A stretch of DNA of 64,000 nucleotides, taken from IMG/VR virus record IMGVR_UViG_3300049216_000035, positions 1 through 64,000 of that record; one strand, given 5' to 3'. Position 1 is the first letter of the stretch; each line of letters starts with the position of its first letter. Position numbers and translations under genes: made by a program. Below the pieces are notes generated by a model. The model did no database searches. It was not told where the DNA came from and was given only the letters and a program-made list of their open reading frames with translations. The stretch comes from a virus. Below, piece after piece: positions 820 through 60,387 of the stretch.

Positions 820-1284
820 TTACTTGGCTATGTAGTTAATTAACGCACCGCGAACCGCTTCAGCGAATCGCTTCTTGATCTTGGGTAGGGCATCTCTCAT
901 AGCTGCGCCCGCTGGATCGCGCAAACGCATGACGCTTGTGCCATAACGCAGATATTTGTAATGCTCAGATGTGTTGACGAGTTGAACACTATCACCATGA
1001 TCCTCGATATGCGAACTGTGTAAGAAGTCGCCGGATTGGATGTGAACATACTCGTCTGGATGGACGAAAGAATCGACCCCGTAGCGCGTAGAATATGGAT
1101 TCCCCAACGCATCGAGGTCTTTGAGACTATGATCGTCCAGATTGATAAACTTCTGCCATTCCGGCATCACATCGAGAGTCATGGCGTCCATCAAAGTACG
1201 CTTGAGATATGCTGCCGCACCACCGCCGATAGAGCGAATCTTGGAGATGGAAATCTCAAGGTCGTGAATGTGTGCTTCAATCAT
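820..1284 (-). CDS. HK97 gp10-like neck/tail-completion protein
   Basis: C-terminal YKYLRYGTSVMRLRDPAGAA resembles the gp10 motif Y..F.EYGT.KM..RPF..PA; size 154 aa fits. Confidence 0.6.
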   Translation of the reverse strand: MIEAHIHDLEISISKIRSIGGGAAAYLKRTLMDAMTLDVMPEWQKFINLDDHSLKDLDALGNPYSTRYGVDSFVHPDEYVHIQSGDFLHSSHIEDHGDSVQLVNTSEHYKYLRYGTSVMRLRDPAGAAMRDALPKIKKRFAEAVRGALINYIAK

Positions 1285-1950: not shown

Positions 1951-2661
1951 CTAAGTGGCTCCGGGTCTGCCTGCGTGACCGTAGTTTCCAGAACTAGCCG
2001 TGCCGACTTCAGTCAGATCGCCAGTCGTGACGTACCAGGTGTTGTTTTTGAGTTTGGGGACGTAGCTATCACCAGTCGCATCAGTGAGTGAATCAGCTAG
2101 AGCGTAAGCAGTAACATCATCTGAGATGCCGTTCTTGCCCATCTCGATAGCATCCGCGATCTGATCGGGGTCTTTGAGTAGATCGCTGGCTGCGTCAATA
2201 TCAGCCGAAGCTAAGGCATCGGAAAGACTTCTTACCCCGGCTGCGGCGTCATTGTTTAGCGCGTCTTCAAGCGTTTGATAGTCGTCAGGGTCAATCTCTT
2301 GCTTGAGGTATTCCATTGAAAGGCCACTATCGCTAAGAAAGCCTTCAACATCTGCCTTCGTCAGATCATAGTTCGTGAGTAGCGAATCTAGTACGTCACC
2401 ATATACGGCTGTTGCATCGCCTAAATCGAACTCACCAAAACCAATCGTTCCACGCCACGCCATAAGTTCGAAATCTTCAGGCGCGTCGTCTTCCATTTGA
2501 ACCATGTGGCGACAACGAGAACCACATTCGAAATCCCCCGGCTGCGGTACTTCTTCGCAGGAGTAAGGGTTATTTTGAACTGCATCGCTACAGCCGTCGC
2601 ATGAATCATCGTCATCTGGCCCGACGAACCAAGCGAGCAAGTCCTCAGCATTAACTATCAT
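1951..2661 (-). CDS. MuF-like head morphogenesis protein, Cys-rich C-terminal half + acidic domain + linker motif
   Basis: W..GP...SCDGC...NNPY....P.PG...C...CRH resembles the MuF Zn-binding region; ends LTE-VGTASSGNYGHAGRPG. Confidence 0.65.
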   Translation of the reverse strand: MIVNAEDLLAWFVGPDDDDSCDGCSDAVQNNPYSCEEVPQPGDFECGSRCRHMVQMEDDAPEDFELMAWRGTIGFGEFDLGDATAVYGDVLDSLLTNYDLTKADVEGFLSDSGLSMEYLKQEIDPDDYQTLEDALNNDAAAGVRSLSDALASADIDAASDLLKDPDQIADAIEMGKNGISDDVTAYALADSLTDATGDSYVPKLKNNTWYVTTGDLTEVGTASSGNYGHAGRPGAT

Positions 2662-5279
2662 GCCGCACGACCTGCACGAGATTCAGATGGACGCAAATGA
2701 TCCTCGCGCGTGAAGTGTTCTTCACCGTTACCTAGATCATAGATCGCAATCTCATCACGCGCTTCGGCTTTATCGAGCGCGGTAGCTTTGTCGTTATGAA
2801 CTTCAGAAACATCGAGGTAGGTCTTGCCGTCGTTAACCCACCCGCCGATATAGTGGTTGGGCTGGCTGAGGATGTCTTTGTTTTCGTTGACGAACTTTTG
2901 CACGTCTTCGGGTTTCGCTTCGCCGTTAATAACGGTCTCGACCTTATCACCCGCCGCGTTACGGATTCCAGCTATAGCGAACCCACTACGCGGTCGAACA
3001 CCCGTCGTGCTGATCGTAATGCCGCCATCGCGCACAATGCTGCGAGCGATGATGTTCGGGACAATACTCGACCCACCACCAGCCGAACCACCACGCTGCC
3101 CAGGTCTACCGTCGTGACCGTAATTACCACTGCCTACTCCACCTTCGCGGTACTTTCTATGATTCTGCACTTCAGGGAAATAGCTATGGCGCATCTCATC
3201 AGCTATCTCAACCGGAAATGCGAAGGACTTCTGTTCCGGGAACGAGCGTTGCGAGACGGGCTTACCCTCGTTCTCAGGACTATGATTCACCCAAGCGTTC
3301 TGGGCTAGAGTTTCTGCCGCAAGTGCAGGCAGTGCATCCTTCGAGTACATGCGGCCGTGTGCTTGATAGGCTTTGAACTCGCCACGCTCGCCGAACGTAT
3401 TGTCGGGGAAGAAGTGGCCGTACATATCGTGAACGCCACGAAAGATCGTGTTCGCGGTTTGACCGTCTTCAACGACTTTTGAGAGCGGACTATCGTCAGG
3501 CAAGTCGTCTTTCGAGGATCGCACGAACAGCGTCTTCGTCTGTTGGACTGAACGACGCATATCGGGCTGATCTTTATATGGCTCACCTTTGTCTTCAAAG
3601 TCGAACTTATAGCCCGCCGCTTTGAGGTCGTGATACTGATCTAGCGTTTCTTTTATGAACGCCGCGTAGGCTTTCTGCGTTGCGGGATTCGTGGGGTCGT
3701 GTTTCGCGTCAGCGTATATCTGCGCGATCTTACGCAGCTTGTCGTTCAGATCACCAGTGCTACCAGAACCACCACGTTGACCTGGACGGTCAACATGATC
3801 CCAGTTCCCAGAGCCGCGACCGCCTTCACGCACCTTAATTCGCGGCTTGACTGTCTTGTACGTTACAGCTTCGTCAACGATCTTCTTCGATCCGAAGTCC
3901 ATATTGGAATGAAGAACCATGACGCGAGTATCACGATCAGCTTCCGCCATCGGTGCAGCCTTGAACGTGAACTCCCAATTATGAATGGAGCGGGATTCAG
4001 TGTACGGATTGTATGTTTCGCCGAGGTCTTCTTTGCTTGCGAGAATCCAATCATGCGTATTACCGCGTAGTACGGTTTCATGTTCGTCTTGCAGGTGTAG
4101 GATGCCGTTTCTGGGTTCCGTTAAATACGAGTCAAAGACATCGCTGCTGCGAACACCTTCAAAGTGTATAAGTGACCGACTGAACGACTTCGCTATATCT
4201 TCATCATCAGTTGCAGAGAGAAGCGGTCGGAATTGAACGCGGTCGCCCACAATGGCTTTTGCTAACGCCGCAGCTTCTACGTTGCCAATACCGCGAACAA
4301 GGCCAAGTGCATCATCCCCCATGCGCGTGAACTTCTCAAAGGCTTTGGCTTCCTTATCAGCCTGCTCGGCACACCACTGTTTGACTTGATCTTCGCTTCC
4401 GCCTAACGCTCGAATGTTGCGAAGTTCTGCATCGTACTGTGTTTGCAAGTCTTCCTTGCTACGATACGGCGTAACGAGATTGTCGAACCGATCTTTGCCA
4501 GCCGCCTCGTTCATCACCATTTGCATGAAGTGCGCTGTAGAGTCACGCGACGAGCCAATCCAGTGACCCATCAAATACGACTTGATTTCATCGCTCGTTA
4601 GCGTCTTAGCAGTCGAACCCTCACCGCTGGGCGCTGATCCGCCGACTTGACCAGGACGCCCGGCCTGATCGTGGTTGCCTGAGTTCTCGTTGCCGACTTC
4701 GACCATCGACTCTTTGACTTTATCCTGACGATCACGAGCTTTCACTGCCGTCTGAAAGTCAATCATCGCCTGGATGTAGGCGCGTTCGGCCGCTTTCCAC
4801 AAGAAGTGTCCGTACAGCTTGATACGCGCGATCCGCGCCTTGTCGGACATCCCAGCTTGCAGGTCTGGCTGCAGCGACGTGGTGAGATACTTCTCGTTTT
4901 CGGTCAGTATAGATTGGATGACAGACTGAGGGGCATTAGCGGGAGTGACGGGAGTATAAAACCCCAACCACCCGTTGGTTTTCAGATCGCTAAGACCGCG
5001 CTGATAGCCAGCCGCCACAGCTTGCGGAACGTAGAGTTGCGCCAAGTCCTTGAGTTGCGCGATGCGAGCAACGGGCTTCTTATCAGCACGAGCCGCTTTC
5101 TCAAGATCGCTCTGGTAGCGGCCAATCATCGCCTCAATCGTGAAGATGTGCTTCGAGTGGACGCGCTTCAAGACTGCGGATAGGTTCTTGGTAGTCTCCG
5201 CTCGGAGAGTTTCCGCCTTTTCAGCCGCCTCGATTAAGCGCGAAGCCTCCTCTAGCTTACTCGTCTCCGAGGAGTTCAT
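2658..5279 (-). CDS. MuF-like minor head polyprotein: N-terminal helical half + three cargo modules (ADP-ribosyltransferase-like, HDxxGH domain, unknown domain)
   Basis: Immediately downstream of the portal; three copies of the SGN.xH.xRPGQ.GGS linker; ART motifs LVRG, LSAT, DEHE. Confidence 0.7.
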   Translation of the reverse strand: MNSSETSKLEEASRLIEAAEKAETLRAETTKNLSAVLKRVHSKHIFTIEAMIGRYQSDLEKAARADKKPVARIAQLKDLAQLYVPQAVAAGYQRGLSDLKTNGWLGFYTPVTPANAPQSVIQSILTENEKYLTTSLQPDLQAGMSDKARIARIKLYGHFLWKAAERAYIQAMIDFQTAVKARDRQDKVKESMVEVGNENSGNHDQAGRPGQVGGSAPSGEGSTAKTLTSDEIKSYLMGHWIGSSRDSTAHFMQMVMNEAAGKDRFDNLVTPYRSKEDLQTQYDAELRNIRALGGSEDQVKQWCAEQADKEAKAFEKFTRMGDDALGLVRGIGNVEAAALAKAIVGDRVQFRPLLSATDDEDIAKSFSRSLIHFEGVRSSDVFDSYLTEPRNGILHLQDEHETVLRGNTHDWILASKEDLGETYNPYTESRSIHNWEFTFKAAPMAEADRDTRVMVLHSNMDFGSKKIVDEAVTYKTVKPRIKVREGGRGSGNWDHVDRPGQRGGSGSTGDLNDKLRKIAQIYADAKHDPTNPATQKAYAAFIKETLDQYHDLKAAGYKFDFEDKGEPYKDQPDMRRSVQQTKTLFVRSSKDDLPDDSPLSKVVEDGQTANTIFRGVHDMYGHFFPDNTFGERGEFKAYQAHGRMYSKDALPALAAETLAQNAWVNHSPENEGKPVSQRSFPEQKSFAFPVEIADEMRHSYFPEVQNHRKYREGGVGSGNYGHDGRPGQRGGSAGGGSSIVPNIIARSIVRDGGITISTTGVRPRSGFAIAGIRNAAGDKVETVINGEAKPEDVQKFVNENKDILSQPNHYIGGWVNDGKTYLDVSEVHNDKATALDKAEARDEIAIYDLGNGEEHFTREDHLRPSESRAGRAA

Positions 5280-8200
5280 TGGCGGATTCCACGTTTTCGG
5301 TGATCGACGTAGCGAGTTTCTGAATTGTGTCCATAGCGGGGAGCATGGCTTCCTTGAGGAGATTCATGCGAATAGCACGTTGCAACGACTGCTTACTACG
5401 CATGATCGATGCTTTGCCTTCGTTCGCCATTGGGTTCTTTGCAGCCGAACTGTAGCCACTGGACGGAGCGGTTGGATCGGTATGGATCGGGTCCATCCCC
5501 GCCGCTTTGTTCGTTTTCGTGCTGCCACTGTTCGGCGCTTTACCGGGCGCTGCACTTGGGTTGGATTGTCCACCCGTTCCAGGTGCGCCGCCCTTGGCTT
5601 GTTCTGGCATGAGTTTGTCGCCAGCCACAGCCGGAGGAGTCGGCACGTTGACCATCTGGTTCTGAGGAGCAATCGGCTGCTTCGCGGCCATCTCGGCCTG
5701 CACGTCTTGCGCAATACTCGTCTGAGGAACATGCTCGTTGTCTTGAGTGTAGACGTGAGCGATGGACATCCCGAGTTGCGACTCTTCGAGGATCGTCTGC
5801 CACGAGTCTTCGAAGCTGTACGTCGTGATGTTGAGTTCCTTGGCTGCAATCTTCGCGGCCATAGACTTCGGCATCCACTGCATAGCTTCAGCGAGCGCGA
5901 GGTCTTTCAGCTTCGCACTGCGATCTTCTTGGGCAATAGACGGGAAGATGAACTCTAAGAACTCTTTGGCATAGTTCTGAGACTGTTTGAGAAGTTTTAT
6001 CCGCTTCTTCTGGTCGTCGTTAAGCGGTTTATCGTCGTCGTTGTTTCCGTTGACCGTCTTGTTGAGGTTCTGGTTTGGCTTCTGCTGCGGGTTGTTTGGA
6101 TCGGGGGCTGCTTCGTTGTCCTGATCCTGCGGCTGATTGCCAGCACGAAGCATAGCTTCGCGTAGCTCGAACCCATACTTTGCGGCGACTTCTTCGGGAG
6201 TCATACCCTTCTTGAAGTCGTGGATCGCGGCAGAGAACGGGCTTAGGTCGTGCTTGCCGACCCCGACGCCGTACTTGCCTTTGGAATCGCGAAGCTGATC
6301 GGGATGACCCTCGATCAGTTCAGACTCGGTAAGAGACTCACGCTGCTTGCCAGGCGGAGGTGCCTGTTGCGGGCCATTCTGACCCTGCTGAGGTGGTTGT
6401 TGCCCAGGTTGCGGCTGTTGGCCCGGCTGACCGGGTTGCGGCTGTCCTGGGCCAGCGTTTGGCCCTCCCGGACCCATCGGTGGCGCACCACCAACACCGT
6501 TGAGGCCGAGATTGATATTCGTCTTCGCGCCCGGCTTGTTCAATGCCGTCATGGCCTGCTTGTGCTGCATGCCAAGAGACTGCTTGTCCATCTCGTGACG
6601 GTGCTGCTGATCTTGGACAGACATCGAAAGCGTGGTGTCGTGCAGTTCTTGGGCGTTCTGCTGCTGTTGCTTCTGCTGATCCTGAGCGGCTTGATTCGCC
6701 TGATCCTGTTGGGCCTGTAAATCAGCTTGCAGCGCATCACGATCCGGCAGATCGGTATTGCTCTTAGCCAGCTTCGTTACCGAACGCGCATCAGGAAGGA
6801 TGTCGTTCAGTTTGAGGCGACCACCCTTGATTGCATTGTTAATGACGCGATTCGCCACTGCTTGGCAGAACGATTCAATAAGGCGCTGACGCCGCTCGAA
6901 CCGCTTTACGCCCGGTTCAGTAGCAGTGAGCGCACCGGACTTACCACCCTTACCACTATCTCCGATGAACTCTTTGGGTACGCCAAAACCGACCGCAATA
7001 AGATTGACCAAGGCCGAAATGTCGGACGTAGATTCGTTAGCCTTAATTTCAGAACCAACGGGCTTGAGTTCGAGATTCTTGTTGTGGACGAACGTCGATC
7101 CGGGTTTGTACGGATCGGGAAGGTTTAACTGGACACGCGAGATGTCTTCATTACCGCTGTTGACCGATACGTCCCACACGAACGCTGCTTCGAGTTGGCC
7201 TTTGACCACGCGCGCGTTCATAAGGTCTTGGAGGCGCTTCAACCACCCAAGAATCGAAAACAGGTCACTGCGACCGCGCTTCTCGTACTTCGAGACATTC
7301 AGTTTGATATGCAGGACGTTGTTCGCCGGAATATCCCGCAGAACGTAGCGCATCGAAGGGATGTTGCCCTTCGTATACATTTGATACGCAGTAGAATACT
7401 GCTGACGCATGTAGAAGACTTTTTGGATGTCTTCAGGATCGGTGATAATGTCCCAGATTGTGGACGGATCGATCATCCGATAGTCGGTGTAGCCTTTACC
7501 CAGCTTCGGAACGCTATCGATGAACTCAAGCATGAGTTCACCCGCCCACCACGCATCAGTCGCGATGTTCTCAAGGTCGGTGTAGAAGTCCGTGCGATCC
7601 ACGAACTCGCGCCAGACTTCATCGACTTCTTCGTTCGTAGACGTATGGTCGATACCGCGTCCGAGAACGAACGAGGTTTGTAGTTCGCAGAGTTGGTGCG
7701 CCACTGGGTTGTGGTTGTAAGCCTGAAATGCCTTACGGTGCATGTCAAGCATGTCGTACTGATACAACTGCTTAGACTCTGGTCCGCACATCATGGGGAT
7801 GTACTCTGCGTTAGGATCGCGACCGGAGCCATACGGCGGCATCGCCGTGCCTTGATATGCACTACCACCGCCGAAGTCGTCAGCGTATCCACCGCCGTCG
7901 AAGCCTTCGAGCAAACGATTAGCGGCGGCTTCGATTGCTTCTTCGCGAACGCTATCAGCTTCGCGAAGCGTTACGCCGTAGACATCGGGCGCTTTGTTCG
8001 ACTCGACAAGTTCTTGCCAGCGCGCTTGACCTTCACGCAGCCGCTTCTGAAGTTCCTCACGCGAATTGTACTTCTGAAGACGATACGTCCCGTCAGTACC
8101 AACTTCGAACAGCGTTGCTTGGATTTCCCAGTCAACCTCTTCACCGTTCGGCCCAATCTGTTTGTCAGAAAAGAAGTCGAACTTTCCGACAGTCGGTTCA

Positions 8201-8394
8201 AGAGCTTCCATGAACTCTTTGTCGGGCTGGTAGGGTTCGATAGGGGCTTTGGTCTGGAAAGACTGGGCGAACGTCGCAACTCTCGCTACGGCGCTCTCAG
8301 AGACTTTCTGTGGACTACCACTCTGGTCAACGACAAGAGCCACAGCACTCGACTGTGGCGCGGGGGGTCGTTTTCTAGCTCTAGTCCGTCCCAT
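5257..8394 (-). CDS. portal protein with long N-terminal extension and internal Q/P/G-rich insertion
   Basis: Follows terL; portal-like core (AYNHNPVAHQLCELQTSFVLGRG, IDPSTIWDIITDPED, NVSKYEKRGRSDL, IAVGFGVPKEFIGD). Confidence 0.85.
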   Translation of the reverse strand: MGRTRARKRPPAPQSSAVALVVDQSGSPQKVSESAVARVATFAQSFQTKAPIEPYQPDKEFMEALEPTVGKFDFFSDKQIGPNGEEVDWEIQATLFEVGTDGTYRLQKYNSREELQKRLREGQARWQELVESNKAPDVYGVTLREADSVREEAIEAAANRLLEGFDGGGYADDFGGGSAYQGTAMPPYGSGRDPNAEYIPMMCGPESKQLYQYDMLDMHRKAFQAYNHNPVAHQLCELQTSFVLGRGIDHTSTNEEVDEVWREFVDRTDFYTDLENIATDAWWAGELMLEFIDSVPKLGKGYTDYRMIDPSTIWDIITDPEDIQKVFYMRQQYSTAYQMYTKGNIPSMRYVLRDIPANNVLHIKLNVSKYEKRGRSDLFSILGWLKRLQDLMNARVVKGQLEAAFVWDVSVNSGNEDISRVQLNLPDPYKPGSTFVHNKNLELKPVGSEIKANESTSDISALVNLIAVGFGVPKEFIGDSGKGGKSGALTATEPGVKRFERRQRLIESFCQAVANRVINNAIKGGRLKLNDILPDARSVTKLAKSNTDLPDRDALQADLQAQQDQANQAAQDQQKQQQQNAQELHDTTLSMSVQDQQHRHEMDKQSLGMQHKQAMTALNKPGAKTNINLGLNGVGGAPPMGPGGPNAGPGQPQPGQPGQQPQPGQQPPQQGQNGPQQAPPPGKQRESLTESELIEGHPDQLRDSKGKYGVGVGKHDLSPFSAAIHDFKKGMTPEEVAAKYGFELREAMLRAGNQPQDQDNEAAPDPNNPQQKPNQNLNKTVNGNNDDDKPLNDDQKKRIKLLKQSQNYAKEFLEFIFPSIAQEDRSAKLKDLALAEAMQWMPKSMAAKIAAKELNITTYSFEDSWQTILEESQLGMSIAHVYTQDNEHVPQTSIAQDVQAEMAAKQPIAPQNQMVNVPTPPAVAGDKLMPEQAKGGAPGTGGQSNPSAAPGKAPNSGSTKTNKAAGMDPIHTDPTAPSSGYSSAAKNPMANEGKASIMRSKQSLQRAIRMNLLKEAMLPAMDTIQKLATSITENVESANELLGDE

Positions 8395-8402
8395 CTGTCT
8401 AA

Positions 8403-10022
8403 TTATACGCGATCAAAGCGACGGTAGTTAGCAACCCGAGTCTGGAAACTAGAGCCAATCGTTATGGCTTTGGGGCCACCGCCCTTGAACTGGGACATCG
8501 CGATGGCACTGTAGCTGTTGGCATGAGCATAGTGGTCCGCCCCCAGCTTCTTCCAAATCGCCTTCTGAAGTCCAGTATCTTCGTCCGTGTCGATGACCTT
8601 CGCCATCGCGACAACCTGCTCGATAAACTCTTTGCGGGTGTCGTCTGGCATGCGCGGCAGGATCAGATCGCGGCGCGTAATCTCTTCGTACATGGCATCG
8701 AGCGATTCCGTTCGATTGACGTTAACCGCCCAGTCCTTGAACTCGTCCTGAGTGTTCTCACCCGGCCGAATCCACTTGTACGAGCCCTTCTGTGTGTCAA
8801 CATAGTAGCACAAGTAGACACGGCCACCGAACCGCTTCGCAAAGTCACGGGCTGAGTGCTGATTCGGCAGGCCGTCGATCACGCATATATTCACATCATA
8901 TTCGCGCATGTAGCGATCTAGCTCGAAGAACGTCGCCACCTTGCCGACAAACAGAACGCGCGGTCGGCCAGTGATCTTATCGTTCTGGCGGATGACGATG
9001 TGCAATTCTGATCCACGTTGGTCAACGCCCATGTAGCTGCGCTCGCCCTGGATCATCGCCATGTCTGTGCCTTGATCCATGCACGATTCAACCATGTCTG
9101 CCGTGACGCGCATGTCGCTCGAAATCCACGGAATACCGAGGTCCGAACGCATGAACTCTTCACGACCGCGACCGCTCTCGTACTTGTAGAGCATTTCCGA
9201 TAGATCGGCGACGCCGCCATACAGCCCGCAAAGGTGATAGCCGCGAACGCGCTCAGTCTTCTTTTCTGGTTTCCAGAAGCCGTAGCATTTGTCGAGTTCG
9301 CTATCGCACTTGCGACATACGAGGATCGCCTTCGTCTCGCTGATACGCTTGATAATGTCGGGGAATTGAAACTCGCAGATGTTGTGCGTCTCGCACTTCT
9401 TGCACACGAGATTCCAATAGCGTTTATCCGACAGACCGAACTCGTAGTCGATCCCATAACCATCGAACGTCGGCGTCGATAGCATATACTTCCACTTCAG
9501 ACTGGAGTGGAGCAGCCGCTTCTCGGCGAGTTCTTTCTGATCGGGTGTGACTTCATCGAGTTCGTCAAAGACGAGCATGTCGCCAGGAACAGACTTCAAG
9601 CGAATGTTCGAACGCATGCCTCGGAAATACAAAAAGCCGCGCCCAATCTGACGCAAGCCTACGGAGTCAACATCCTTCGAACCCACGAGTCCTGAAATGT
9701 AGGGACTGTCTTTGATGATCGGCGCAACGCGAGACTTACTAAATTCTCTCACGTCCTCATCGGTCGGGAAATAGTACAAAACATTTTTCCCTAATTTATC
9801 ACAGACGTATAAGGACTTAATCATCCCCAATACCGAAGCACCCATTTGTGCCGATTTTTCAACCACTTGGTATGGGTGAATGTCAGCGTACATATCAATC
9901 AAATAGGCGTGGTCTTCGAAAGAGAACGGCTTGCCGTCCACCTTCACATATTCCTGGGCATACCCGATAAGTGAGGAGTCTGCAATCGCTTGAGCAATCG
10001 CCAGTTCTTCTTTGCTTGCCAT
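8403..10022 (-). CDS. terL: terminase large subunit (lambda gpA-like)
   Basis: VVEKSAQMGAS (gpA-type Walker A), LVFDELDE Walker B, LSTPT, CxxC pairs, nuclease MGVDQ and DHYAHA; ATG at 10022 coupled to the upstream stop. Confidence 0.92.
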   Translation of the reverse strand: MASKEELAIAQAIADSSLIGYAQEYVKVDGKPFSFEDHAYLIDMYADIHPYQVVEKSAQMGASVLGMIKSLYVCDKLGKNVLYYFPTDEDVREFSKSRVAPIIKDSPYISGLVGSKDVDSVGLRQIGRGFLYFRGMRSNIRLKSVPGDMLVFDELDEVTPDQKELAEKRLLHSSLKWKYMLSTPTFDGYGIDYEFGLSDKRYWNLVCKKCETHNICEFQFPDIIKRISETKAILVCRKCDSELDKCYGFWKPEKKTERVRGYHLCGLYGGVADLSEMLYKYESGRGREEFMRSDLGIPWISSDMRVTADMVESCMDQGTDMAMIQGERSYMGVDQRGSELHIVIRQNDKITGRPRVLFVGKVATFFELDRYMREYDVNICVIDGLPNQHSARDFAKRFGGRVYLCYYVDTQKGSYKWIRPGENTQDEFKDWAVNVNRTESLDAMYEEITRRDLILPRMPDDTRKEFIEQVVAMAKVIDTDEDTGLQKAIWKKLGADHYAHANSYSAIAMSQFKGGGPKAITIGSSFQTRVANYRRFDRV

Positions 10023-10432
10023 TAAGCTGCCACCGATTTTCGCGTTGCGAGATAATAGAACGCAGCCGCAACTATAGCGCGACGATCCTTGAACATACCC
10101 AGTCCCGCGTTGCAGTTGAAACATAGCATGCCACGAACCTGACCTGTCTCGTGATCGTGGTCAACGAGTAGCTTCTGGCCTTCTTCGGGAACCATCGCAC
10201 AGATGTTGCACTTTGAATGATCGAGTGAGAGGTATTGTTCGCGCGTTAAGCCGTACTTGCGCTTGACGTGTCCCCAAAAGTCAAGTTCTTTCTTACAAAG
10301 CCCGCAAGTGTTCCAGGTATATCGACCAAAAAGTGCTTCGTCCACATACGCTTCACAACGCGAACACCACCGCAAGCCATCGTGCGGTGGTTTACGTTCT
10401 GATATAGGTGGACGACCTATCTTAGTCGCCAC
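10022..10432 (-). CDS. endonuclease VII-family homing endonuclease
   Basis: CNIC...LLVDHDHETGQVRGMLCFNCNAGLG; lies between terS and terL. Confidence 0.9.
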   Translation of the reverse strand: MATKIGRPPISERKPPHDGLRWCSRCEAYVDEALFGRYTWNTCGLCKKELDFWGHVKRKYGLTREQYLSLDHSKCNICAMVPEEGQKLLVDHDHETGQVRGMLCFNCNAGLGMFKDRRAIVAAAFYYLATRKSVAA

Positions 10433-49554: not shown

Positions 49555-49770
49555 TTAGCTCGGAGTCGTGACCGTAGCCGCGATAGCGACGAAGACCTTC
49601 TGATTCTGAGAAACAAGGTTGCCGCTAATGATAATCGCGTTGCCAGCAGCCGCAGCCGAGTTCATCGCCGTGGCGTCGGTCTGCGCCGCGCTCAGGGTCG
49701 AATACTCAGCTACCAGGTCTTCGCCGAACTGGGTCCGATACTGGATGAAACCACCCGATGCGGTAGCCAT
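49555..49770 (-). CDS. small putative virion protein
   Basis: 71 aa, A/T/S-rich, downstream of MCP. Confidence 0.55.
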   Translation of the reverse strand: MATASGGFIQYRTQFGEDLVAEYSTLSAAQTDATAMNSAAAAGNAIIISGNLVSQNQKVFVAIAATVTTPS

Positions 49771-50426
49771 TACGCTGCTTTCCTTACTGCCCAGCGCGTC
49801 AGTTGTGCGTCGCGCATCTTCTGACGAGTCTCTGGGCTGTGTTTCTTGCCTCGCAACGCGACGCTATTGGCGGCACCAATCTTCGCGCGATGTTCGGGCG
49901 TGAGTTTCGCACCCTTTCGCCCCTTCACCGCAGCCGCGACCATGATCGCCTTCTGCTCGGGGGTGTACTGGTACGGATTAGCCAGCTTCGATGCCCTGAT
50001 CTTCTCTTTTTTCTCTGTTGAACAAGGAATGCGTCGCTTATCGCCAGCCTTCTTTTGTGCCGCTGCGGAGTTGACTTTACGCCGTGCTATCGTCTCCGGG
50101 GAGAGATGGAACAACGGCGAATCAGCCGACTTAGTAGCATTGTATACTGGCTCTAATTTGTTAATCCAGTATTGTTCAAGGGCTACACGCTTTTCCGGCT
50201 CGCACAGTTCGATCACAAAGAAGTCGAACTGATCTTCACCATACTTTGCCCACGCGGCCCGCAGATGCGGGGTAACGTGCCCACCTGTTCTGAGTCGGTG
50301 CAAGTGCTGACGCCACCGGGAGTGGATGTCGATACTCGACCCTATGTACATGTTGCTGTTAATCTTGTTCTGGATTCCGTAGACTCCAGATAGTCTTTTT
50401 GACGCCATATACCTAGTATAACTCAT
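49770..50426 (-). CDS. GIY-YIG homing endonuclease with NUMOD3 repeats
   Basis: SGVYGIQN...MYIGSS...RW..H; GKKHSPETRQKM. Confidence 0.92.
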   Translation of the reverse strand: MSYTRYMASKRLSGVYGIQNKINSNMYIGSSIDIHSRWRQHLHRLRTGGHVTPHLRAAWAKYGEDQFDFFVIELCEPEKRVALEQYWINKLEPVYNATKSADSPLFHLSPETIARRKVNSAAAQKKAGDKRRIPCSTEKKEKIRASKLANPYQYTPEQKAIMVAAAVKGRKGAKLTPEHRAKIGAANSVALRGKKHSPETRQKMRDAQLTRWAVRKAA

Positions 50427-50429
50427 ACT

Positions 50430-50471
50430 AGAGTGTGACAGTTACCCTACATAAGCAGAGTGTGACAGTTA
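50430..50471. repeat. 15-bp direct repeat AGAGTGTGACAGTTA x2
   Basis: 50430-50444 and 50457-50471, between the MCP stop and the GIY-YIG gene. Confidence 0.8.
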
Positions 50472-51617
50472 TATGCCATTTCCGGCGTATAGGTAACGGT
50501 ACTCGATGACCGCCGTCGCGTAGCGACGACGAACACGGTAGCGATACTCGTCCTTTTCGAAGGACGCGCCAGCGTTGCGGGCTTCCTGGAGCAGTTCGAG
50601 CGGATCGCGATCCTGCCACACGATGGACGTTTTCGGTTCCATCAGGTACCAGTAACCGTTGCCCGAGCCGTCAACAGGCAGCCATCGGCTGATCTTCAGC
50701 GTGTAGAGGCCCTGAAGGGGATTGATCGTCCCAGACCAACCCGTCGCGCCACCGCTGAAGAAGGCCGTCTGCGTCGCGCCCGTACCATTGGTCGTGGTAT
50801 TCGGAACGCTCGGTTGCAGCGTCGAGTTCAACAGCTTCGCAGCGTTGAACTTTTCAGCCGGAGCCGTGAGCAGAACGCCCGGCTTGACCATGATCTTGTT
50901 CCCGAGGGGATCGACCATGTTCATCAGAGCGATGTCGGCAGCTTCGAGGCCAGCCTGCGAGAGCTTCGCATACGAGGTCGGACGGTTGCCGATGGCAGTC
51001 GTGTACGACGTGTTCGCGACGCCCGTGATACCACGACCCTGGGTCGTGATCTTGAAGACATCGACGCCCATAACGTCCGCTTCTTCTTTGTAGCGGAGGC
51101 GCTGGCCGAGGCCCGTCGCGCGCTGTTCGATCTGGCCCGTCTGATCGTCATCAATCAGTTCGCGCTCGACCGTGAACATGCGACCGACCTTCTTGTTGAC
51201 GACTTCCACGTCAAGGCCGGACACACGCGAGTCCTCGAACTTGCCGCCGAGCGGCACGTCACGCGGAATCTCGACGCCGAACATCGGGGCGTACCATTCT
51301 TGGCGATTGCTCGACGGACGCGCCGACACGAGGTCGGTATACACGAAGTCGTCAACGCTCTTGTACGCATCGAACATGAAGTGCTGGACGCCGTAGCGCA
51401 GGAGTTGGCCGAAGGCCGTCTCCGACGTGGCTTCCGAGAGCTTCGCTTCAGCTTCCTGAAGGTTCTTGTTGAGACGGCCGAAGCTAAAGTTGTCGGACTC
51501 TAAGAGTTCCTCATACTTCTTCGGATCGACTTTCGCCGAGCGGCGGATCGATTCACCGAGGCGCGTTTGCTGCGCTTCGAGTGCGATTGCCTGACGCTCG
51601 ATCAGAGACTTTCTCAT
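50469..51617 (-). CDS. major capsid protein (HK97 fold, Mu gpT-like)
   Basis: KVGRMFTVERELIDDD.TG, GNKIMVKP..LL, YRVRRRY; probable cleaved prodomain ending KLSE|ATS. Confidence 0.9.
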   Translation of the reverse strand: MRKSLIERQAIALEAQQTRLGESIRRSAKVDPKKYEELLESDNFSFGRLNKNLQEAEAKLSEATSETAFGQLLRYGVQHFMFDAYKSVDDFVYTDLVSARPSSNRQEWYAPMFGVEIPRDVPLGGKFEDSRVSGLDVEVVNKKVGRMFTVERELIDDDQTGQIEQRATGLGQRLRYKEEADVMGVDVFKITTQGRGITGVANTSYTTAIGNRPTSYAKLSQAGLEAADIALMNMVDPLGNKIMVKPGVLLTAPAEKFNAAKLLNSTLQPSVPNTTTNGTGATQTAFFSGGATGWSGTINPLQGLYTLKISRWLPVDGSGNGYWYLMEPKTSIVWQDRDPLELLQEARNAGASFEKDEYRYRVRRRYATAVIEYRYLYAGNGI

Positions 51618-52148: not shown

Positions 52149-53819
52149 TTAGACTCCCATTCCCGCGAAGATGATCGATTCGTTGGCACGAGCATCGCTC
52201 TCGCGAATCTGGACCTGGCGACCGGGGTTGCCGACGATCTTCTTCGTGCCGATTTCGGCAACGTAGTTGACCTCAGTCTCGATCAGAGAGTCCATCTCCT
52301 CAGCCGTCTTGCCAACAAGCGACGGGAGAAGTTTGGTGGCCGCAGCCGCCGGGAGATTGCTCTCCTTCAGCTTGTTCTTGGCCGTCTCGATAGACTCGCG
52401 CATCTCATTTTTGGTGCGCTCTGCCTTGAGTTCTTTCTTGAGGCGCGCTACTTCGGCCGCAGCTTCCGCGCGAGCTTCCGTGAGCGCCGCTTGGAAAGCC
52501 GAACTATTGCGCGAGCGAACATCGCTCTCTTTAGTTTTAGATTCCGAAGTCTGCTCGGACTCATCGTCCTCGTCATCATCGTCATCTTGCGGGGCTTGTT
52601 CGCCCTTCGCAACGAACGGCGGGGCTTTCTTCCCACCGAAATTGGCCGTGCCAGCTTCCTTAGCTTTCGCCTCGGACATGCTCTCGGAACACTCGTCGCA
52701 CTTGCAGTCGTCCTTGTGCGCTTCTTTCATGTCCGTGCCGCTGGTGAGAGCTTCAACGAGCGTTGCGAGGTCTTCCGGGTCAACCGAACCCTCTTTGCTC
52801 TGAGCCTTCAGCCGCTTGGCAGTCTCCACGAGTTTCTTGTCCATCGTAGCTCCCTTATCGCTTTCGACTAGTGCGAGGAATCTGCCGCCCCGCGCGGGTT
52901 TCGTGACCAGATCGGCGCTGAAGGCGTCCGTAATCGAGTTCACATAGTTGACGGACATGCCGCCCACATCTTTAGGTGACACGTCGCCGTCTGCATTGAT
53001 GCTGATACCAGCGTAGACTTTGTTTGGAAATTGCTTCGAATACGCAATCGCCTCTTTGATGAGGCCAACCGCCCAGTCTTGTCCGTCCTGAATCTTGAGC
53101 TTGGCAGCGATAGCCGTCTTGCCGTTGTTCTGGACGATGTGCGAATCGAAGTAGTAACCGAACAGATCGCGCACCGAGCGTTCGGGACGATCAGTCTCTT
53201 CGAACGCGCTCGGATGATCCGCATACGCTTGCGCGCCATCGAACACTTTGTTGGCGACCGCTTTGATGAGCGTGTCTGCCGCGTAATAGTGCTTGTCGCG
53301 CTTGTTGCCCAGACCTTCCTCAATGATAATCACGCTCGCGGTGCGAGTCGCATCATCGTAGGTGCCTTCGATCAGACGAGGATTGAAGACCAGCGTTTCA
53401 CGGAGGTTCTGAACCGACTCTGTTATCGCCGACTCTTTACTCTTCGTGCCGAGCATCTTGTGCGCTCGTACTTTGATCTTCTTCTTATCTTCTGCCGAGA
53501 GGTTCTTGCCTCGCGATAGCATCTGGAGCGCCAGCCGTGCATGCTTCTTGTCCGGCATCGGGAACCGACCACCGGGAAGAGTCTCAGTACGCTGACGTAC
53601 CTTTTTGCCTACCGCCTCTTCGATGCTGTTGTCGGTCGGATGAGTCGTCTCAGGAGAGATCGTATCCGTCCGGCGAGTCTTGGCATCGAAGGGTCCGGGC
53701 ACTTTTTCAGTTTTCAAAGGCAGATAGGCCCTCGACTTACCAAGTCGGGGCTGTGCACCGTCCCGGAAGAGTTGTCCGGCCGCAGTTCCAGACTGCGCCT
53801 GACGCGAGGCGACCATCAT
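52149..53819 (-). CDS. prohead protease-scaffold with N-terminal DUF6582-like domain (start uncertain)
   Basis: IIEEGLGN..HYY, YADHP, RSVRD, GISIN, SADLVTKPARGG; C-terminal coiled coil; RFPMPDKKHARLAL. Confidence 0.8.
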   Translation of the reverse strand: MMVASRQAQSGTAAGQLFRDGAQPRLGKSRAYLPLKTEKVPGPFDAKTRRTDTISPETTHPTDNSIEEAVGKKVRQRTETLPGGRFPMPDKKHARLALQMLSRGKNLSAEDKKKIKVRAHKMLGTKSKESAITESVQNLRETLVFNPRLIEGTYDDATRTASVIIIEEGLGNKRDKHYYAADTLIKAVANKVFDGAQAYADHPSAFEETDRPERSVRDLFGYYFDSHIVQNNGKTAIAAKLKIQDGQDWAVGLIKEAIAYSKQFPNKVYAGISINADGDVSPKDVGGMSVNYVNSITDAFSADLVTKPARGGRFLALVESDKGATMDKKLVETAKRLKAQSKEGSVDPEDLATLVEALTSGTDMKEAHKDDCKCDECSESMSEAKAKEAGTANFGGKKAPPFVAKGEQAPQDDDDDEDDESEQTSESKTKESDVRSRNSSAFQAALTEARAEAAAEVARLKKELKAERTKNEMRESIETAKNKLKESNLPAAAATKLLPSLVGKTAEEMDSLIETEVNYVAEIGTKKIVGNPGRQVQIRESDARANESIIFAGMGV

Positions 53820-53846
53820 TCTCACCCTTATCCGCCACGAAGTCAC

Positions 53847-59387: not shown

Positions 59388-59867
59388 TTAGGCACTCGTG
59401 AGCGCCTTTCGCGGCGTACCGCCCATCGGAATCGGGGGCTTCGGATCGCTGCGCGGGGGTGACTTCAGCAGCATGATAATCTTCACCACGTCGCTGGCTG
59501 GGTCGCCCGTGCCCTCGAAGATCATGCGGGTCTTACCCCCGGTCATACCGTTCAGCCAGATCGCCAGATCGACTTCCACGTTCGCGCCGACCGAGTTCTC
59601 CCAACCCGGTAAGCAGTAGATGATGTCCGCCTCGGCGACCCGTTCGAGGTCCCACTTCGCGAACGTCTCCCACGGATCGAGATTGAGATAGTCGGCACTC
59701 GTTGCCCCGGTCGTGGGGTCGAAGCCCATCTCACGATCATGGTCGGCTGGGCTAAAGACGGTGATCCCCGCAGCCGCGAACATATCGCGCGCCTCATCGA
59801 ACGCGGGGAAGTTCCAGAGCGGAAACGACCTCATTGGACCTGAAAGATAGACAGAGTACCTACGCAT
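59388..59867 (-). CDS. DUF4406 / nucleoside 2-deoxyribosyltransferase-like protein
   Basis: VYLSGPM...NFPAF...D.IYCLPGWENS.GA.VE. Confidence 0.8.
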   Translation of the reverse strand: MRRYSVYLSGPMRSFPLWNFPAFDEARDMFAAAGITVFSPADHDREMGFDPTTGATSADYLNLDPWETFAKWDLERVAEADIIYCLPGWENSVGANVEVDLAIWLNGMTGGKTRMIFEGTGDPASDVVKIIMLLKSPPRSDPKPPIPMGGTPRKALTSA

Positions 59868-60387
59868 GTTCACTCCAGATTCGGCCACGCTTGATAGCCG
59901 AGATTAGGGACTTCGAAACCCCGAACTCTTGGGCGAGCCGCTTAACGACTCCATGAATCCCTACTGCGAGTTCCGCTTTGATGGTGGCGACCTGGGTTGG
60001 GTTCAGCTTCAGATAGGCAGGCGGGCGATTCTCGTACTCGATGGCCTTCAGGGCTTTTGCGGTATAACGATCTGAAAGCCAAGGCATCAAGCGATGCAGG
60101 ATGATCGGAACTTTCCAACCAGACACACGCCACGCATAACGGGGCTGTTTACCTAACCCGGATGCCGGAAGCGGGCCAGCGATTTCGTTACCGAACAGTT
60201 CTGAAAAGCGAACTAACGGATCGATGTCACATAGGGCAAATGACAATCGAGGCCGCTGATGCTCGTCAACGAAACCTATAGAGCCGTCCGCGCAAAGCCA
60301 GCCGGCGAACCACGCCATAGTGGGTTCGTCTATTGCGTCGATCCGCGCTTGGTATTCGGACACATCTTTTTGCCGTACAGGGGTCAT
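59860..60387 (-). CDS. free-standing LAGLIDADG homing endonuclease with C-terminal HTH
   Basis: WFAGWLCADGSI; LAQEFGVSKSLISAIKRG..W. Confidence 0.8.
   Translation of the reverse strand: MTPVRQKDVSEYQARIDAIDEPTMAWFAGWLCADGSIGFVDEHQRPRLSFALCDIDPLVRFSELFGNEIAGPLPASGLGKQPRYAWRVSGWKVPIILHRLMPWLSDRYTAKALKAIEYENRPPAYLKLNPTQVATIKAELAVGIHGVVKRLAQEFGVSKSLISAIKRGRIWSEHA

Follow-up and report, generated by a model that had tools for sequence, protein, structure and literature searches.

Minor head proteins of the MuF type are present in about a third of tailed phages and many of them deliver toxins or counter-defence enzymes; their role is poorly known. The subject here is a pair of consecutive minus-strand genes, P0001 and P0002, in the first 64 kb (hereafter the window) of a 74.5-kb IMG/VR virus record, IMGVR_UViG_3300049216_000035, which together probably encode a divergent MuF-like minor head protein that is split at the hinge between its two subdomains and carries inserted cassettes.

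For the MuF superfamily, Jamet et al. (2017, PMC5576092) give only two architectures, 'short' and 'with C-terminal extension', with fusions of ADP-ribosyltransferase (ART)/Alt-VIP2 domains to MuF also described (PMC9503650), and portal-MuF and protease-MuF fusions known from actinobacteriophages (PMC7302621). In the limited literature searched, MuF is described as a short form, with an extension or toxin at its C-terminus, or fused to portal, protease or ART; a MuF unit that is itself interrupted or split was not found there. Compared with MuF and SPP1 gp7, the unit of the window has the same place directly after the portal gene, the same helical body followed by a small W/F-x-G-x-D...(C/R)-x-x-(C/H)...P-x-P-G...C-R-(C/H) element and, as seen in a contiguous relative, a predicted fold that superposes on proteins with PF04233, the Pfam MuF model. 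It differs from them in having no significant match to PF04233, in a metal-binding part with four Cys plus C-R-H, and in being interrupted by about 700 residues of cargo and a gene boundary. Distant members of its family are portal-fused, as are the actinobacteriophage proteins; in the latter, however, the unit that is fused is intact, whereas the window shows fission. The split or inserted MuF-like architecture is new relative to the literature searched, and recurrent in an uncultured phage clade.

Two parts of one unit on separate genes

A first-pass annotation of the window, made from its letters, had placed the helical N-terminal part of a MuF domain at the opening of an 873-aa open reading frame (ORF) and the Cys-rich part at the opening of the next, ATGA-coupled gene about 2 kb downstream, and both placements hold. 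The stretch it quoted, ARIARIKLYGHFLWKAAERAY, is a helix at residues 148-168 of P0001, at the end of the helical N-terminal domain, this part closing with an R-x3-Y-G-H-F-L-W...E-R-A-Y helix. The Cys-rich part is at residues 11-52 of P0002 and reads W-x3-P-D-D-D-S-C-D-G-C ... N-P-Y ... P-x-P-G ... C-x3-C-R-H, with C21, C24, C46, C50, R51 and H52 invariant. From the end of the helical part to the Cys module is about 2.1 kb, with the cargo lying between, and the window has no MuF domain contiguous on one polypeptide, the one part being in P0001 and the other in P0002.

Relatives bring the two parts together. When P0002 was compared by HMMER with all of 1.84 billion representative proteins, 84 Cys-module relatives came up at E<=1e-3, of which 38 are at E<=1e-10. 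The helical part, whose nearest relative is 59% identical (E 6.5e-61), also occurs in six of the 84 when P0001 residues 1-195 are compared by local phmmer (E 1.7e-26 to 5e-16). In P0011, P0030 and P0024 the helical part ends about 10-15 residues ahead of the Cys module on one chain (7-178 with the Cys module from 195, 5-165 with it from 184, and 50-166 with it from 175, respectively). P0035, P0028 and P0021 are also single chains, with 320-630 residues of cargo between a helical part that ends at about 200 and a Cys module that starts at 517, 829 and 777, respectively. Since relatives carry both contiguously on one chain, the two parts are, on sequence comparison and at the level of family architecture, best taken as halves of one bipartite unit. 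A census of 76 Cys-module representatives, skewed towards the query's own type, has the module N-terminal in 42, contiguous with the helical part by hidden Markov model (HMM) in 20 and probably so in 11 more, with three of helical-cargo-Cys order.

Scans of viral and metagenome contigs gave a further set of loci (L003-L022 and L024-L035). Both parts follow terminase and portal on the same strand in all nine loci with enough downstream DNA, as separate ORFs in the window, L003-L006 and L008-L010 and as a single ORF in L007, and the number of ORFs between the halves goes from none (window, L003, L009) up to seven (L006). At least eight related phages have the same layout. An HNH endonuclease gene (7587-8108) is between the halves in L005 and is ATGA-coupled to the Cys-half gene. 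(The same locus has, at 4359-6464 and between portal and helical-part gene, a 701-aa ORF with three of the linkers dealt with below.) In distant members, helical and Cys parts are at the C-terminus of portal-like proteins of 750-820 aa (P0052, P0067, L011, L014, L033). A portal-sized protein of 1091 aa, P0083, ends in helical and Cys parts and has a LAGLIDADG/intein-type insertion (LAGLIDADG_3, E 5e-9).

The gene boundary is a conserved feature and not a sequencing error, because P0006, the closest relative of P0001, keeps the P0001 C-terminus (RPSES-x-AGRAA) and because the Cys ORFs of relatives start alike. In eight other viral loci the start (ATG or TTG) is 6-10 residues ahead of F-x-G-P-D-D, in differing frames and often after unrelated genes. 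This start often overlaps the preceding stop, as ATGA in the window and in L005 and as TGATG in L009, with similar overlaps in L003 and L008. This bears on the reading in which decay or faulty assembly produced the split, so that a frameshift broke what used to be a single polyvalent gene and the downstream piece is unmade. That reading is hardly credible, even with a region just downstream that is visibly decayed (it has a TAG, half a linker in another frame, and a P-loop cut after its Walker A motif) and with P0002 in the -1 frame relative to P0001. Against it are the conserved C-terminus in P0006 and the eight independent starts just described, together with the strong conservation of the Cys module, which has 10-11 invariant columns in alignment. 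In addition, the longest contig is of the same length, 61,407 nt, for P0006 and for the Cys-first P0009, the protein nearest to P0002. A programmed -1 frameshift from P0001 into P0002 was considered and ruled out, there being no slippery heptamer and the frame relation varying among relatives; the open -1 frame ahead of the P0002 ATG is only 21 nt.

Fold, gene position and the MuF assignment

The MuF call rests on fold plus gene position, not on sequence. An AlphaFold2 (AF2) model of the contiguous P0024 has a mean predicted local distance difference test (pLDDT) score of 76, with both subdomains at 85-94. Along the chain it has six helices, a knuckle of β-hairpin, helix and strand, a disordered segment of acidic character, and another helical domain. 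Nearly every match in BFVD that has a name is called 'minor capsid', 'MuF-like' or 'head morphogenesis'; probabilities reach 1.00 and template modelling (TM) scores, normalised to the target, reach 0.66, and the matches include ART-MuF, protease-MuF and portal fusions. In the ESM Atlas, residues 13-232 (213 aligned) give TM 0.64 to a cluster with PF04233 in 100% of its members, and two portal-plus-PF04233 clusters are also aligned. Homology carries the fold to the window (E 3e-21 and 1.6e-27). As to position, muf genes are typically directly after the portal gene (PMC5576092), and the start of P0001 overlaps the portal stop by 23 nt, placing it at the MuF-typical portal +1; the same order of portal and helical part is present in L003-L010. 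A six-frame PF04233 scan of the whole record gave no other MuF candidate. Modelled fold and gene position together make it very probable that the unit is MuF-like.

Several findings weigh against this assignment. A match of either part to MuF-like profiles, on which the first-pass annotation had made its proposal depend, was not obtained. PF04233 has no match in P0001, P0002 or their sub-parts (E<=1 to 10), in six frames of the whole 74.5-kb record (E<=10), or in 43 relatives (E cut-offs 0.1 to 5), with positive controls scoring 111 bits (Mu F) and 114 bits (SPP1 gp7). Comparison by hhalign of the contiguous family with a gp7/Mu-F alignment gave E 0.075 and 0.14 at a probability <1%, a non-significant alignment whose register is nevertheless the expected one (R-x3-Y-A on R-x-A-R-T-E; F-x-G-x-D-D..C..C on W..D.R-T-R..H; C-R-H on C-R-C). 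The fold evidence comes from a relative, P0024, and not from the window proteins, the AF2 model of whole P0001 (from a 5-row alignment) being unusable at a mean pLDDT of 36. There is no solved MuF structure for comparison, and the TM score of a mostly helical unit is dominated by its helical part. Sequence searches of P0001, P0002 and P0005 against Pfam, NCBIfam and PDB gave nothing useful, and a profile search with the short contiguous forms found only three proteins and no Pfam-labelled bridge to MuF.

These points would suit a different identity for the unit, as an unrelated portal-proximal head or ejection family that resembles MuF only in being helical with a small metal-binding tail. The absence of a PF04233 match anywhere scanned and the non-significant hhalign result are what that identity would lead one to expect, and middling structural scores come easily to helical bundles. 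It is nonetheless very improbable. The named BFVD matches are nearly all MuF or minor capsid proteins and not random helical proteins, and the Pfam-labelled Atlas rows are PF04233 or portal plus PF04233. The gene stands where muf genes do, the genome has no other MuF candidate, and the portal-fused members P0052, P0067, L011 and L014 mirror the known portal-MuF fusions (PMC7302621). The unit is best classed as one that would work like MuF, with no match to the MuF profile.

Where the break falls is also pertinent. PF04233 spans residues 149-270 of gp7 and 59-188 of Mu F, taking in, in gp7, three helices plus the W..D..R..H...C-R-C part. Because the model covers the last helices and the metal-binding-type part, the break in the window is inside its span. 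The earlier proposal of a MuF domain split in two is upheld on this count, and by the two parts forming one unit in relatives, with a MuF fold and gene position. A rather unlikely alternative has the helical part and the Cys knuckle as independent folding units with separate jobs (e.g. portal binding for one; DNA or zinc-dependent binding for the other), merely often fused; no reassembly in trans, which the first-pass annotation had thought possible, would then be needed, and to speak of a split domain would be a question of terms. The helical part of L010 would fit this well, as a stand-alone 188-aa protein with six ORFs preceding the Cys-module gene, which shows that a half can exist as a protein by itself, and so would the 42 representative proteins in which the Cys module comes first, the flexible hinge of the P0024 model (pLDDT <50 at residues 169-172) and the probable protease site at that hinge. 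It has to contend with PF04233 covering, in gp7 and Mu F, sequence of the helical as well as of the metal-binding kind, with the joint presence of both parts in nine of nine loci, and with a superposition on PF04233 proteins that runs through both.

Cassettes, linkers and a candidate processing site

P0001 and its neighbours have five to six copies of a linker in which x-(R/T)-E is followed by G-G-x-G-S-G-N-x-G-H-x-G-R-P-G-Q-R-G-G-S (Table 1), visible in the DNA as 63-nt repeats of 68-71% identity. A (V/L/M)-(R/K)-E motif is 33-40 residues past Y-G-H..W in eight of eight helical-part proteins, before Cys module or cargo alike. After this hinge motif, contiguous forms have an acidic stretch and the Cys module (S-L-R-E/A-S-S-D-D; H-V-R-E/A-E-A-D-D), and inserted and split forms have a Gly/His linker and cargo. 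One-chain inserted forms possess a second site, G-L-R-E/A-E-D-D, directly before the Cys module, and it is almost exactly at the residue past that site that P0002 begins (M-I-V-N-A-E-D-L-L). Every cargo module closes with the same motif, the sites all ending in Glu (V-R-E, Y-R-E, M-T-E, L-T-E). Since the R-E site of the hinge also closes every cassette, with the linker behind it, the cassettes appear to have been inserted at the hinge and swapped by recombination between linkers.

A genuine PF04233 domain (55.5 bits) accompanies the linker in P0088; because that protein joins the linker to canonical PF04233, the cassette system is tied to true MuF carriers. P0088, of 1129 aa, has PF04233 at 146-245, a pretoxin-HINT/intein-like domain and a eukaryotic-type topoisomerase I (IB-like) core, all Gly/His-linked. 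Another protein found via the linker motif, P0080 (860 aa), has GNAT cargo ahead of a C-terminal, near-threshold PF04233-like domain.

Judged as a polyvalent protein, P0001 presents three linker-bounded modules after its carrier, one ART-like and two matching only PHROGs of unknown function. The first looks like an ADP-ribosyltransferase at the level of a lead, on the strength of predicted structure: its ESM Atlas rows are ART, ADPrib_exo_Tox and DRAT clusters at TM 0.46-0.55. At its position P0006 has unrelated sequence. The second is 80% identical in P0006; P0012 and P0013 also have it, there following the Cys-half (E 1e-56 to 1e-58). The third, with its C-terminus RPSESRAGRAA, is kept in P0006, and its cassette is behind the Cys-half in P0032 (E 1e-26). 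The module of P0005, the ORF downstream of P0002, is also directly before the Cys module in P0021, P0028 and P0035. Since these three recur in other positions in relatives, which are polyvalent-like proteins as well, cassettes seem to move between the two carriers.

The first-pass annotation had each half carrying its own C-terminal cargo. This stands for P0001, whose linker-bounded cassettes lie between the halves. It does not stand for P0002, the tail of which is a family-wide acidic helical domain, present in contiguous forms too and a confident helical bundle at residues 311-425 of the P0024 model. This tail is no variable effector, and the variable cargo that comes after it is separated from the gene by a TAG and appears to be decayed. 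P0002 ends S-G-N-Y-G-H-A-G-R-P-G-A-T-TAG, and P0005 is in frame with it behind the TAG; the sequence at 1929-1990 has the look of a scar left when two copies of the linker recombined, with a later frameshift. P0005 itself closes with a fifth linker, then a Walker A motif, G-G-P-A-S-G-K-G, and a stop 19 residues on (1369-1500), and its residues 152-177 have a weak Zeta_toxin match (E 0.16). P0011 has an intact Zeta-toxin-like kinase in the corresponding position (Zeta_toxin, E 4e-9), as P0009 apparently does; these are the two proteins in which intact layouts behind the Cys-half are seen. With P0005 stopping 19 residues past Walker A and a full kinase in P0011, the kinase cargo of the window phage is taken to be truncated. 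Read-through of the TAG from P0002 into P0005 is disfavoured: long standard-code ORFs run across the window, and an out-of-frame linker half fits a scar.

Strings of effectors on a carrier packaged in the head are known from polyvalent proteins (Iyer et al. 2017, PMC5512222) and MuF toxins. The window shares with these the effector strings, the shuffling of cassettes among relatives and a predicted delivery with the DNA. It differs in having its effectors within the carrier and not after it, in distributing them between two carriers and two genes, and in cassettes bounded by R-E plus a Gly/His linker in place of embedded zincin peptidases.

For what might happen at the hinge, the pertinent comparison is with phages in which Glu-specific prohead proteases (T4, phiKZ, SPN3US) cut packaged, ejected proteins after Glu (PMC5694885), T4 Alt being an ART that is so processed (PMC5694885, PMC9026906). 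In T4 and phiKZ the packaged proteins are directed into the procapsid, where short motifs are cleaved behind their Glu, and they later leave by ejection (PMC5694885, PMC9026906), and the sites of the window likewise end in Glu. By this analogy the R-E hinge site is probably a prohead-protease site. The differences are that targeting in the window would be by a MuF-like carrier and not by a capsid targeting sequence of 10-20 residues, and that the protease of the window is untyped and its cuts putative.

A sequence of events can be proposed on these grounds. Gene 1 would supply the helical subdomain with three cassettes, one of them ART-like, and gene 2, started by stop/start coupling, the four-Cys subdomain with the conserved acidic helical domain. 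The cassettes, each consisting of linker, module and R-E, would have been inserted at the hinge and would be exchanged by recombination between linkers. Like MuF proteins, both gene products may be taken into the procapsid beside the portal; cuts after the Glu of each site would then be made by the head maturation protease, in the manner of T4 and phiKZ-type proteases, and the freed modules, the ART-like one included, would exit with the DNA and act on the host. If the hinge is always cut, in contiguous forms too, separately encoded halves would cost little, which may be why contiguous, inserted and split forms coexist. The hinge as processing site is in this respect a plausible mechanistic reason for the split. 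The analysis establishes that the parts are homologous across relatives, that they occur in three architectures with conserved gene order, that cassettes are shuffled and that the fold is MuF-like; capsid incorporation, cleavage, ejection and any contact between the halves are inferred. It counts against the proposal that the head maturation protease is of no assignable type. Further still, a MuF carrier split at its own maturation-cleavage site might have become two autonomous capsid-targeting tags that re-associate at the portal, each loading an exchangeable string of injected effectors; this stronger version is possible, though doubtful.

Neighbouring genes and wider meaning

On the minus strand the order is terminase, portal, P0001, P0002 and P0005, and the coordinates are collected in Table 1.

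Table 1. Coordinates of the two genes, their modules and linkers, and other head-module genes in the window
Feature	Coordinates	Strand	Remarks
Large terminase	8403-10124	minus	GpA_ATPase, phrog_675
Portal, 1045 aa (P0003)	5257-8394	minus	PF05136 E 1e-8; phrog_21 E 2e-22; directly upstream of P0001
P0001, 873 aa	2658-5279	minus	helical part and three cargo modules
N-half, helical part (P0001 residues 1-190)	4710-5279	minus	N-domain HMM matches 4731-5240, E 5e-67
Insertion point K-V-K-E / M-V-E, then degenerate Gly/His linker 1, N-S-G-N-H-D-Q-A-G-R-P-G-Q-V-G-G-S	4635-4721	minus	DNA repeat 4639-4661
Cargo 1, ADP-ribosyltransferase-like (P0001 ~225-480)	3840-4607	minus	weak phrog_832 'RNA polymerase ADP-ribosylase', E 0.0094
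Linker 2, V-R-E / G-G-R-G-S-G-N-W-D-H-V-D-R-P-G-Q-R-G-G-S	3765-3839	minus	63-nt repeat 3765-3827
Cargo 2, H-D-x-x-G-H motif (P0001 ~506-707)	3159-3764	minus	phrog_3170 (function unknown), E 2e-15
Linker 3, Y-R-E / G-G-V-G-S-G-N-Y-G-H-D-G-R-P-G-Q-R-G-G-S	3084-3158	minus	repeat 3084-3146
Cargo 3 (P0001 ~733-873)	2661-3083	minus	phrog_17808 (function unknown), E 6e-9
ATGA stop/start overlap of P0001 and P0002	2658-2661	minus	
P0002, 236 aa	1951-2661	minus	four-Cys part and acidic helical domain
C-half, four-Cys zinc-knuckle part (P0002 residues 8-57)	2491-2640	minus	Cys HMM E 3e-26
Acidic helical domain (P0002 ~58-215, ends W-Y-V)	2017-2490	minus	aligns to P0011 195-437, P0009, P0010, P0012-P0016 and others
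Cut-off linker, T-E / V-G-T-A-S-S-G-N-Y-G-H-A-G-R-P-G-A-T and TAG	1951-2016	minus	repeat 1961-1990
Apparently decayed downstream cargo	1369-1950	minus	out-of-frame half linker R-P-G-Q-R-G-G-S 1929-1951, then P0005
P0005, 188 aa	1369-1935	minus	apparently decayed cargo ORF
Major capsid protein gene	50469-51617		
Head maturation protease gene	52149-53846		

The portal is unusually long and carries a Q/P/G-rich insertion; its residues 825-909 against the helical part of P0001 gave a non-significant phmmer E of 0.2. Farther down, a 154-aa ORF at 820-1284 (minus strand), without a family match, ends R-F-A-E-A-V-R-G-A-L-I-N-Y-I-A-K. A similar ORF, alike at its C-terminus, is downstream of the Cys-half gene, directly or a few ORFs on, in L004, L006 and L007, and L005 has one of equal size with a different end; it may be a further conserved head-module gene. 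No immunity gene of the MuF-toxin type was identified, no search having been aimed at one, and the downstream ORFs at 820-1284 and 245-589 match no family. Genes resembling GIY-YIG and HNH homing endonucleases are at 49770-50426 and 59860-60387 (minus strand), one of them adjoining the major capsid protein gene. Beyond the window, in the remainder of the record (64001-74541, L023), are a tyrosine integrase and a thymidylate synthase, at 3090-4208 and 2150-2911 of that piece, because of which the phage is probably temperate. Neither the region nor P0002, P0024 or P0060 has a match by megablast or tblastn in cultured phage records, and the clade is known only from metagenomes.

For annotation, the consequence is that profile searches miss a whole clade and that gene callers would label the two halves as unrelated hypothetical proteins. 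For the biology of the family, the series of contiguous, inserted and split forms marks where a MuF-like protein can be opened without loss, suggests two separable functional parts, and indicates that each effector would be flanked by a specific boundary for processing and recombination. There are direct experimental handles: which half binds the portal, which half suffices to package a passenger, and whether the modules are released and injected. If the stronger version with two capsid-targeting tags is true, foreign proteins could be brought into a phage head by either of two minimal, portable signals, the helical part or the zinc knuckle of 50 residues, and R-E plus the Gly/His linker would serve generally, in canonical MuF proteins as well, as a 'cut here, swap here' boundary.

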